This document shows positions 151 through 1,334 of a DNA stretch of 12,317 nucleotides, in pieces. Position 1 is the first letter of the stretch. Each line of letters starts with the position of its first letter. The notes below the pieces were generated by a model. It made no database searches and was not told the DNA's origin. It saw nothing but the letters and a program-made list of their open reading frames with translations. Origin of the DNA: a virus (taxonomy: Duplodnaviria > Heunggongvirae > Uroviricota > Caudoviricetes); the IMG/VR virus record IMGVR_UViG_2690316115_000015, positions 1-12,317 of that record. The stretch is one strand, 5' to 3'. Position numbers and translations under genes: made by a program.

Positions 151-732
151 TCACTGGGTAAGCTCGTTTGGTTTTAAATGTCCGTCGAGAATCAGATTGT
201 GATTTTCCCGATGCAGAACCAGTGTGCCCATATAATCAGGTTTAAATCTCCATCCATTCATTTTTTTTGCAATTCTGGACAGACAGTGATTATGTGTGAA
301 AATCACAGTAACATGATCTGATTTTGATATTTTAAGGATATTATTTACTGCGTTATCATCACATGTCGATATGTCCGGAATAGTTGCTGTCTTACCTCCC
401 GAAAAAAAAGTGGCTGTCTGCATTGTTCGGAGTGTGTCTGTAGAATAGAGACTGTAGTATGGAAACATTCTTCTGAATTTATCTCCATATTGTTGAGCTT
501 TGTTAGCTCCGTTTACTGTGATTCCCTCATGTGCTGAAAGACATATTCTTTGGGAGCGATCGCATCTTTCCCCATGCCGGATGAGAAAAATAATGGGATG
601 TTTCTGGTTAATCTCAGTGACATCGTTCACATCAAGTCTGACTGGAGTTCTTACAATGTATATGATGGATACAGAAACGATTATGACAAGTAAAAATATA
701 AGAAGAGATTTTGTTAGCGTTTGATTTAACAT
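151..732 (-). CDS. Ais/PmrG-family histidine phosphatase (LPS core heptose(II)-phosphate phosphatase homolog) with N-terminal signal/anchor segment
   Basis: The translation carries the histidine-phosphatase catalytic motif RHGERCDRS and a second conserved block VIFTHNHCL...FKPDY. Both line up closely with E. coli Ais as I recall it (RHAERCDRS, IVIFTHNHCL, FKPDY), with conserved spacing across the whole protein. A hydrophobic N-terminal stretch (LLIFLLVIIVSVSIIYIV) fits a periplasmic or membrane-anchored protein. I place the start at the ATG at 730-732, which has an AAGGGA Shine-Dalgarno ~7 nt upstream; the ORF-track start at 765 has no SD and overlaps a -10-like hexamer. The gene is AT-rich compared with the phage operon. 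Confidence 0.8.
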   Translation of the reverse strand: MLNQTLTKSLLIFLLVIIVSVSIIYIVRTPVRLDVNDVTEINQKHPIIFLIRHGERCDRSQRICLSAHEGITVNGANKAQQYGDKFRRMFPYYSLYSTDTLRTMQTATFFSGGKTATIPDISTCDDNAVNNILKISKSDHVTVIFTHNHCLSRIAKKMNGWRFKPDYMGTLVLHRENHNLILDGHLKPNELTQ

Positions 733-766
733 ATAAATTCCCTTGTCTGTGTTGAAAATGGGCATT

Positions 767-796
767 ATTATGCGTAAATCTTATGTAATCCTTAAG
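767..796 (-). promoter_or_regulatory. Candidate promoter for the Ais-like gene with a PmrA/BasR-box-like direct repeat
   Basis: On the minus strand: CTTAAG-GATTA-CATAAG (plus coordinates 796 to 780), then 7 nt, then CATAAT (plus 772-767) as a -10-like hexamer. The repeat resembles the YTTAAK-N5-YTTAAK PmrA box as I remember it. It sits inside a perfect 14-bp palindrome AATCCTTAAGGATT (787-800). Confidence 0.3.
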
Positions 797-1334
797 GATT
801 GTCTGACGTGGTGATATGACGCGAAATACAGTGGGTACACAGAATGCTGTGAACAACGACGAAATGGGCATTGGTAGCGGTACTGGTGCTTTTTTTATTG
901 GTTGGTTGCTCAAGTCTTGATAAAGCGCGTTAGCTTTTTGGTATTGCCTCTTAGGTCTGTAAAATTGCCGACGGTGTCCGGCAGTGCATGCAGGGCTGAT
1001 CGTCTATGAGAACAGAATATATTGCTAAAAATGAAGTGTGCGTCAATGCTTATAAAGCATGCAATTCTGTATTTCTAACTATTCAATAAAATAAATTCTT
1101 TCTGTCGCAGTGAATATACAAATGTTGATCAGCGCTCGATGTGGCGACGGGTTTCTATATCAGGAGACTTTGGCATTTATCCGCGAGGCAGCCTATCTGG
1201 TGCTGTAGTGGAATGAAGCGGATATAACCTAAATAAGGTTAAACATTAATCAGACATGGCTCTGCTGTGTGAAATCTGAAAATTTACAGCAGTCATTGTG
1301 CATCAGTTTTTAACAGAGAACGTCAGAAGGTGAC

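Follow-up and report, generated by a model that had tools for sequence, protein, structure and literature searches.

The DNA analyzed here, referred to as the window, is the complete stretch of 12,317 nucleotides (nt) of the IMG/VR record IMGVR_UViG_2690316115_000015 (Caudoviricetes, positions 1 to 12,317). Near its left end, between the lysis module and the small terminase gene terS, an AT-rich accessory cassette contains a gene for an Ais/PmrG-like histidine phosphatase (positions 151..732, minus strand). This gene is a diverged, mobile paralog of ais/pmrG carried as a moron, and the addition made by the present analysis is a predicted host-regulon promoter traveling with the phage gene. An earlier note on this DNA had already proposed an Ais/PmrG-like phosphatase acting on the lipopolysaccharide (LPS) core. 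Three points go beyond that note: the name already given to the gene by the Prokaryotic Genome Annotation Pipeline (PGAP), its membership in a prophage-specific clade that recurs, and a predicted promoter of the PmrA/BasR type.

The minus-strand open reading frame (ORF) at 151..765 encodes 204 amino acids (aa) from ATG-765 or 193 aa from ATG-732. The latter start codon is more likely, because a Shine-Dalgarno sequence read as AAGGGA (739..744, minus strand) lies 6 nt before it, family members begin there, and ATG-765 falls within the predicted -10 hexamer described below. The longer form was rejected on account of this overlap, the lack of a Shine-Dalgarno sequence, and the start of most family members at the position of its Met12. 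The resulting coding sequence (CDS), with its stop codon at 151-153, has the same length as the RefSeq protein WP_000934362.1, in agreement with the length given earlier. The gene is located between the end of Rz (position ~60) and terS (position 1335), on the strand opposite to the structural operon, so that its reverse orientation upstream of terS is as had been described. The AT-richness claimed for it was also found, both in overall GC content and at third codon positions: the phosphatase CDS has a GC content of 0.375 and a GC content at third codon positions (GC3) of 0.325, as compared with 0.50-0.53 and 0.47-0.62, respectively, for terS, terL, and the genes for the portal and the major capsid protein.

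The whole cassette (103..~1180, ~1.08 kb) has a GC content of 0.388, versus 0.526 for the structural genes. Its boundaries, at 102/103 and ~1180, are clean in the comparison with phage Stx2_453, which matches positions 1-102 (98%) and 1181-1447 (80%) of the window and has different DNA between them. Loci L071-L073 have window positions 146-1168 in common at 75-77% nucleotide identity; therefore, the cassette moves as a unit. The window from position 103 to 12317 is 100% identical to a prophage of Escherichia coli ML35, and positions 103-1400 are 100% identical to a lambdoid prophage without stx that is found in E. coli O104:H4, among other strains. The prophage with the cassette is of a 933W-like, stx-less type. 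In these genomes, the RefSeq name of the protein, given by PGAP, is "lipopolysaccharide core heptose(II)-phosphate phosphatase" (WP_000934362.1). Since the end of the Rz-type gene (1-102) matches Stx2_453 and the DNA from position 103 onward matches the prophages of ML35 and O104:H4, this point is a mosaic junction at which the lysis module and the cassette have recombined independently.

Of 5,426 complete E. coli genomes, 43 contain the phosphatase allele, which is chromosomal in every case and at least 99% identical; these are only part of the 361 genomes that have the accompanying structural module. Together with the absence of the cassette from Stx2_453, these counts bear out the moron status proposed earlier: the gene occurs in some related phages but not in others, and it deviates in base composition. 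Chromosomal ais, found in 5,413 of the same genomes, is a core gene. The prophage gene, rare by comparison (43 to 83 genomes), is therefore a diverged second copy. GER2 (MG710528) is the only deposited phage genome with a homolog of the phosphatase. The CDS annotated there (L083:2549-2821) is just 273 nt long even though the DNA is 99.5% identical, which probably reflects a frameshift or else an artefact of annotation.

With regard to its setting, the gene resembles the morons of lambdoid lysis and terminase regions, such as bor of lambda, and the gtr and oac conversion genes. Like these, it is an accessory, AT-rich, predicted surface-altering gene between late-gene modules, has a predicted promoter of its own, and is present in some related phages and absent from others, with expression expected in the lysogen. 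Unlike gtr and oac, its product has a predicted target in the inner-core phosphate rather than in the O-antigen; its promoter, moreover, appears to be of a type used by a host two-component system.

The Ais/PmrG family and its prophage clade

The phosphatase belongs to branch 1 of the histidine phosphatases and, within it, to the Ais/PmrG subfamily. The only Pfam domain found in the protein is His_Phos_1 (PF00300; 28.7 bits versus a gathering score of 21.7), aligned over only the N-terminal 67 profile positions. The NCBIfam model of the Ais/PmrG subfamily, NF011945 (PRK15416), is matched with 201.9 bits, above its cut-off of 142 bits. In a BLASTP comparison, 158 aa were aligned with Ais of E. 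coli K-12 at 43% identity (E 9e-44), and the identity of the proteins aligned over their full length is 37%. Thus, the similarity to Ais/PmrG that the earlier note had suggested was recovered both by BLASTP and by the profile search.

Both motifs named in that note were read in the minus-strand product. The first, RHGERCDRS (residues 52-60; 553..579, minus strand), contains the catalytic Arg52-His53 pair followed by Arg56, Cys57, Asp58, Arg59, and Ser60, and the second, FTHNHCL (residues 145-151; 280..300, minus strand), contains the invariant His147 and Cys150 and the nearly invariant His149. In an alignment of 38 family members, R52, H53, R56, D58, R59, S60, R102, Q105, and H147 are invariant, so the catalytic His and Arg residues, R52, H53, R56, R102, and H147, are retained in all 38 sequences. 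Of four conserved cysteines, C57, C64, and C150 are likewise invariant in 38 of 38 members, and C124, in the sequence STCDD, is kept in most of them. The AlphaFold2 (AF2) model of the protein (predicted local distance difference test, pLDDT, 91.9) consists of an N-terminal helix (residues 2-26) followed by an alpha/beta domain. A Foldseek search with this model retrieved SixA, PGAM5, phosphoserine phosphatases, and the C-terminal histidine-phosphatase domain of MutT1 (E ~3e-7 to 1e-5), so that the domain has the alpha/beta phosphoglycerate-mutase-like fold. The sequence search of PDB gave no match, the Ais family being without a solved structure, and PHROGs contains no family for the phosphatase. 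The closest solved folds of similar size are SixA and other small branch-1 histidine phosphatases (PDB 1ujb, 2rfl, 3f2i), which have the catalytic RHG histidine, the arginine, and the second histidine in common with the prophage protein. Unlike it, however, these proteins are cytoplasmic, lack the anchor and the cysteine framework, and are only 13-18% identical to it.

The closest named relatives are chromosomal Ais of E. coli (b2252) and PmrG of Salmonella. The prophage protein and these two belong to the same NF011945 subfamily, are of ~193-201 aa, have four conserved cysteines, and contain the motifs RH[GA]ERCDRS, S-x-x-x-RT-x-QTA, and THNHC. All have a predicted N-terminal export signal, and all are linked, the prophage gene by prediction, to the PmrA/BasR regulon. 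Three differences were found in the genes and their products. The prophage protein has RHG instead of the RHA found in most chromosomal Ais/PmrG proteins. Its gene is located in a cassette between Rz and terS, whereas chromosomal ais adjoins arnB (pmrH), from which it is divergent. Finally, the prophage gene has its own sense-oriented predicted PmrA-box promoter and chromosomal ais has none.

The export signals also differ in kind. In the chromosomal Ais/PmrG proteins, a classic cleavable signal peptide ends in AWS|S(N/S)G, whereas the proteins of the prophage clade have a longer and more hydrophobic segment. In the window protein, this segment comprises residues 9-27 (SLLIFLLVIIVSVSIIYIV; 652..708, minus strand), has a mean Kyte-Doolittle value of 3.06 over 19 aa, is followed by a conserved RTP motif, and is predicted to be a signal anchor with an N-in/C-out topology. 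Throughout the prophage clade, the 19-aa segment has mean Kyte-Doolittle values of 2-3.1, the RTP motif is invariant, the N-terminal flank is positively charged, and no small-x-small (AxA) cleavage site is conserved. Judging from these features, the segment is probably an uncleaved N-terminal signal anchor that places the catalytic domain in the periplasm. The putative membrane anchor and the four conserved cysteines argue for a periplasmic enzyme; from there, it would be well placed to act on LPS on the outer face of the inner membrane.

The homolog search yielded 70 proteins, nearly all of E. coli, with identities from 85% down to ~40%. Clustering separated the chromosomal Ais/PmrG proteins from several mobile clusters. 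The former have 61-100% identity to K-12 Ais and 35-41% to the window protein, to which the mobile clusters are 45-85% identical. Representative members with 72, 64, and ~60% identity are all encoded at the junction of the lysis cassette and the terminase genes, where they converge with the endolysin gene and run antisense to the operon of the late genes. The packaging modules of their prophages are of the lambda Nu1/gpA, Terminase_2/Terminase_6, and HK97-like Terminase_4/TerL types. With the 933W-like type included, reverse-oriented paralogs were therefore found in the same slot of at least four types of packaging modules. Pairwise ratios of nonsynonymous to synonymous divergence (dN/dS) among the prophage lineages are 0.19-0.26 at dS of 0.65-1.1, which indicates old lineages that have been kept functional. 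The gene name being already present in RefSeq, what is new here is this recurrent clade at the lysis-terminase junction, together with its putative anchor and its predicted PmrA-type promoter. A literature search for prophage ais/pmrG paralogs, PmrA/BasR-controlled prophage genes, and AfrS returned nothing relevant from a searchable library that is incomplete.

Predicted PmrA/BasR-type promoter

A PmrA/BasR box, CTTAAG-GATTA-CATAAG (CTTAAGGATTACATAAG), was predicted at 780..796 on the minus strand, in the sense of the phosphatase gene and with one mismatch. No other site in the 12.3-kb window comes as close as one mismatch to YTTAAK-N5-YTTAAK. After a spacer of exactly 10 nt, the box is followed by a predicted -10 hexamer, AATAAT, at 764..769 (minus strand), with a predicted transcription start near position 757. 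The box, the 10-nt spacer, and the -10 hexamer form a predicted promoter core of 33 nt (764-796, minus strand), and no -35-like hexamer is present at the phosphatase promoter. The PmrA box has been described as CTTAAG-N5-XTTAAT (PMC3973317) and takes the place of the -35 element (PMC10570014). A verified half-site, CCTAAG, departs from the consensus at the same position as CATAAG of the window (PMC10570014).

The same layout was found for the known genes of the regulon. In K-12, the promoters of arnB (pbgP), eptA (pmrC), ugd, waaH (yibD), and pmrR have a direct repeat CTTAAG-N5-xTTAAK with 0-1 mismatches in place of the -35 element, followed after exactly 10 nt by a -10-like hexamer. Relative to the start codon, the box extends from -61/-65 to -45/-49 in eptA, waaH, and pmrR and from -64 to -48 in the window. 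Unlike these promoters, the one in the window is located on phage DNA, has CATAAG as its second half-site, and is predicted from sequence.

In the prophage clade, every copy examined has the composite motif on its 5' side, at -217 to -226 nt relative to the codons for RHG, with two exceptions: one lineage with a degenerate box and one locus cut by the end of a contig. The chromosomal ais/pmrG genes of Escherichia, Salmonella, and Citrobacter lack the composite motif on their 5' side, as do the Pseudomonas homologs and the plasmid clade. For chromosomal ais itself, no box was found, the sole site being the one near arnB, at a distance of ~200 nt (K-12) to ~390 nt. A scan of both strands of 392 kb of prophage DNA revealed 12 composite motifs, of which 11 are located at Ais-like genes from five distinct lineages and the remaining one at a prophage copy of waaH. 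Since WaaH is an LPS-core enzyme of the BasR regulon, this copy serves as an unplanned positive control. In shuffled 120-nt upstream regions, the chance of finding the composite motif is 2e-4 to 2e-3. When six diverged upstream regions were aligned, the 33-nt core from the box to the -10 hexamer holds 13 of the 20 invariant columns (P = 2e-5), and the flanks are diverged.

The prophage waaH copy (L014:6905-7924, minus strand) encodes a glycosyltransferase that is 94% identical to K-12 WaaH (YibD) and matches NF007482 with 614 bits. It is located between the genes for the Q antiterminator and a holin, and its box (~7973-7989) is followed after 10 nt by TAAAAT. The same prophage also has an Ais-like gene and hence contains two predicted PmrA-regulated genes for the LPS core.

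Some observations weigh against control by PmrA/BasR. The second half-site of the window, CATAAG, is imperfect, and in the L003-L006 lineage the box is more degenerate (ATTAATTGCCTCATAAG), being followed after 10 nt by TATAAT. The region is AT-rich, which favors matches of the TTAA type, and part of the conservation of the promoters reflects shared descent, because they are homologous. The box could accordingly be a chance or inherited AT-rich resemblance within a weak constitutive sigma-70 promoter, or else a QseB site, all the more as TTAA-rich sequences are common in horizontally acquired DNA. This explanation appears unlikely. The composite motif is essentially limited to Ais-like and waaH genes in the prophage DNA scanned, five known BasR promoters have precisely the same spacing, the invariant columns cluster in the half-sites and the -10 hexamer whereas the flanks have diverged at dS ~1, and a -35-like hexamer is lacking. 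QseB, a paralog of PmrA, could nevertheless be a user of the candidate site; a preprint on QseBC/PmrAB in enteropathogenic E. coli (EPEC) contains no mention of ais or prophage genes. The promoter thus combines a sense-oriented box, a spacing in which the box replaces the -35 element, and conservation beyond background. Because of the uniqueness of the box, its K-12 layout, and its conservation across lineages, PmrA/BasR control of the phosphatase gene is considered likely.

Proposed role of the prophage phosphatase

Taken together, the data are best described by a functional lysogenic-conversion gene for a membrane-tethered Ais/PmrG-like phosphatase, predicted to be switched by PmrA and to trim an inner-core phosphate, a reading that we regard as moderately probable. 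In a lysogen, the prophage gene would be silent by default until activation of PmrB/BasS. Upon sensing of Fe3+, Al3+, or mild acid by PmrB/BasS, phospho-PmrA would bind at 780-796 and recruit RNA polymerase to the -10 hexamer at 764-769, and the phosphatase would be induced along with the host arn, eptA, waaH, and pmrR genes. The anchored enzyme would then remove an inner-core phosphate before export of LPS. By analogy with Salmonella PmrG, this may be the phosphate of heptose II, whose removal is ascribed to PmrG in PMC8129183, with reference to Nishino 2006. Alongside the modifications made by arn, eptA, and waaH, the core would thereby undergo an additional, conditional decrease in negative charge. 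During lytic growth, the Q-antiterminated late transcript would cross the phosphatase gene in the antisense direction.

Several points weigh against this role or limit its likely effect. We infer enzyme activity, substrate, topology, PmrA dependence, and phenotype for the prophage clade from sequence. The terminator-like hairpin 3' of the gene is weak, so that, of the expected transcription signals of a moron, its own promoter is predicted and the terminator is doubtful. In a PmrA-constitutive strain, deletion of pmrG/ais from E. coli left polymyxin resistance unchanged (PMC8129183), and the phenotypic effect may therefore be small. Finally, the equivalog model for PmrG, NF052369, is matched with only 113.2 bits, below its cut-off of 170 bits. 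This result and the identity of 37-43% to Ais agree with the earlier description of the protein as a diverged paralog of moderate similarity, and they mean that its substrate may differ.

Indeed, a protein of the same family and location could act on the phosphate or pyrophosphoethanolamine of heptose I, on the lipid A 1-diphosphate formed by LpxT, or on an undecaprenyl-linked intermediate. Besides the failed equivalog model and the 37% full-length identity to Ais, this possibility is favored by the membrane anchor in place of a cleavable signal peptide, by RHG in place of RHA, and by the wide divergence within the clade (45-85% identity). Another substrate nevertheless seems doubtful, given that the catalytic and cysteine framework is fully common with Ais and that the gene is predicted to be co-regulated with genes for core and lipid A modification. 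No residue-level sign of a changed binding pocket was obtained.

A benefit mainly to the phage is less probable still. The earlier note had considered masking of the LPS core as a receptor, and altered core phosphates could block adsorption of core-dependent phages or colicins and so exclude superinfection. Modification of LPS by prophages as a means of exclusion is well known, and the same prophage also has cor and lom/ail-type surface genes. However, a conditional promoter of the PmrA type is an odd fit for standing protection, and the gene is antisense to late transcription. The predicted promoter speaks for conditional lysogenic conversion rather than for constitutive masking of a receptor.

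The weakest alternative is an AfrS-like factor that would act with an AraC-type partner on fimbrial or virulence genes rather than on LPS. It is based on a single database name, "transcriptional activator AfrS" for the truncated prophage homolog P0066, and on AraC-family (HTH_18) genes downstream of Q in prophages with an Ais-like gene (L011:10479-11192 and L013:11103-11831). This role is highly improbable in view of the absence of a DNA-binding domain, His_Phos_1 being the sole Pfam match, the N-terminal anchor, the four conserved cysteines, the constrained catalytic residues of a phosphatase, and the lack of an annotated AraC gene in the O104:H4 copy of the prophage. The AraC genes and the AfrS name are reminiscent of the afrR/afrS pair of the AF/R1 pilus operon.

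If the proposed lysogenic-conversion role is correct, the prophage of outbreak-lineage strains, including E. coli O104:H4, would add a second, conditional inner-core phosphatase to the PmrAB response. It would be a compact case of a phage moron that joins a host two-component regulon by carrying the corresponding type of promoter. Such a gene could modestly shift the resistance of the lysogen to Fe3+, Al3+, or cationic peptides, or its sensitivity to phages and colicins. It would also draw attention to Ais paralogs of an unstudied mobile clade, carried both by prophages and by conjugative plasmids, Ais/PmrG itself being barely characterized. The weight of these consequences is limited, as the gene was already annotated, LPS-modifying prophage genes are familiar, and the known ais/pmrG phenotypes are mild.

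A broader and rather speculative view is that temperate phages of E. coli carry a mobile extension of the PmrAB regulon. Diverse Ais-like phosphatases and, in at least one prophage, a copy of waaH may have been captured with PmrA-box promoters, so that the charge of the core would be remodeled only under gut conditions that induce PmrB. The anchored clade may then differ from Ais in substrate or role, acting on another phosphate of the core or lipid A or on an envelope signal that affects fimbrial expression, as hinted at by the AfrS name.

Other features of the window and further homologs

Divergent from the phosphatase gene, the cassette contains a frameshifted remnant (816..933, plus strand) of a gene for a ~60-aa lipoprotein (phrog_7528; lipobox LLVGC), of which only the fragments MTRNT...GAFFIGWLLKS and MVAVLVLFLLVGCSSLDKAR are left in the window. 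An intact lipoprotein gene was found at the same position in L003, L005, L013, L014, and L074; therefore, the ancestral cassette probably consisted of two genes. The 34-aa ORF at 816-920, considered as a new small protein or a divergent target of PmrA, was rejected as an out-of-frame remnant of the same 60-aa lipoprotein gene. A terminator-like hairpin is located within the remnant (866-891, plus strand). The weak one 3' of the phosphatase gene (81..93, minus strand) was found by a consensus scan only and lies outside the cassette, in the phage backbone. An Rfam scan of positions 1-1500 at a permissive threshold gave no match.

The rest of the window is a head and tail module of the 933W/Sepvirinae type, with a P22-like portal, an N4-gp56-type capsid protein, and a collagen-like tail fibre. 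The tail-fibre ORF (10537-12317, plus strand) continues past the end of the window and contains long collagen-like Gly-X-Y repeats, to which the right end of the window owes its GC content of 60-67% and its strong purine skew.

Ais-like genes were found in further genomes as well. Some chromosomes of porcine enterotoxigenic E. coli (ETEC; H145-H153) have 2-3 separate copies of the mobile clade, with ~66% nucleotide identity to the window gene. In Pseudomonas chromosomes (L036-L055), distant homologs with 23-35% identity retain RHGERCDRS. Such homologs occur widely in Pseudomonas and further Gammaproteobacteria, where they lie apart from the arn context of enterobacteria.

Plasmid-borne proteins of the same family are also encoded on mobile DNA, with genes located either in a conjugative transfer operon or beside the gene for an autotransporter of the SPATE type (serine protease autotransporters of Enterobacteriaceae). 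The latter group, paralog P0036 (43% identity), was found in 817 blocks of the contig collection. On plasmid-sized contigs (L007-L010:8001-8582), it is located among insertion sequence elements and adjoins two alpha/beta-hydrolase genes and a gene for a 1,284-aa SPATE-type autotransporter, and no PmrA-type promoter was seen in this clade. The former group is represented by a gene annotated as traG on plasmid pHU590 (IncI-gamma/K1; L087:3378-3962), whose product is ~45% identical to the window protein over residues 40-184. This gene lies between traF and traH, near rci and the shufflon of IncI-type conjugative plasmids. An Ais-like gene was matched in approximately 1,440 PLSDB plasmids, 1,383 of which are conjugative. 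The thin-pilus adhesins of IncI plasmids bind LPS of the recipient, which would make the TraG-like Ais homolog of these plasmids deserving of attention.

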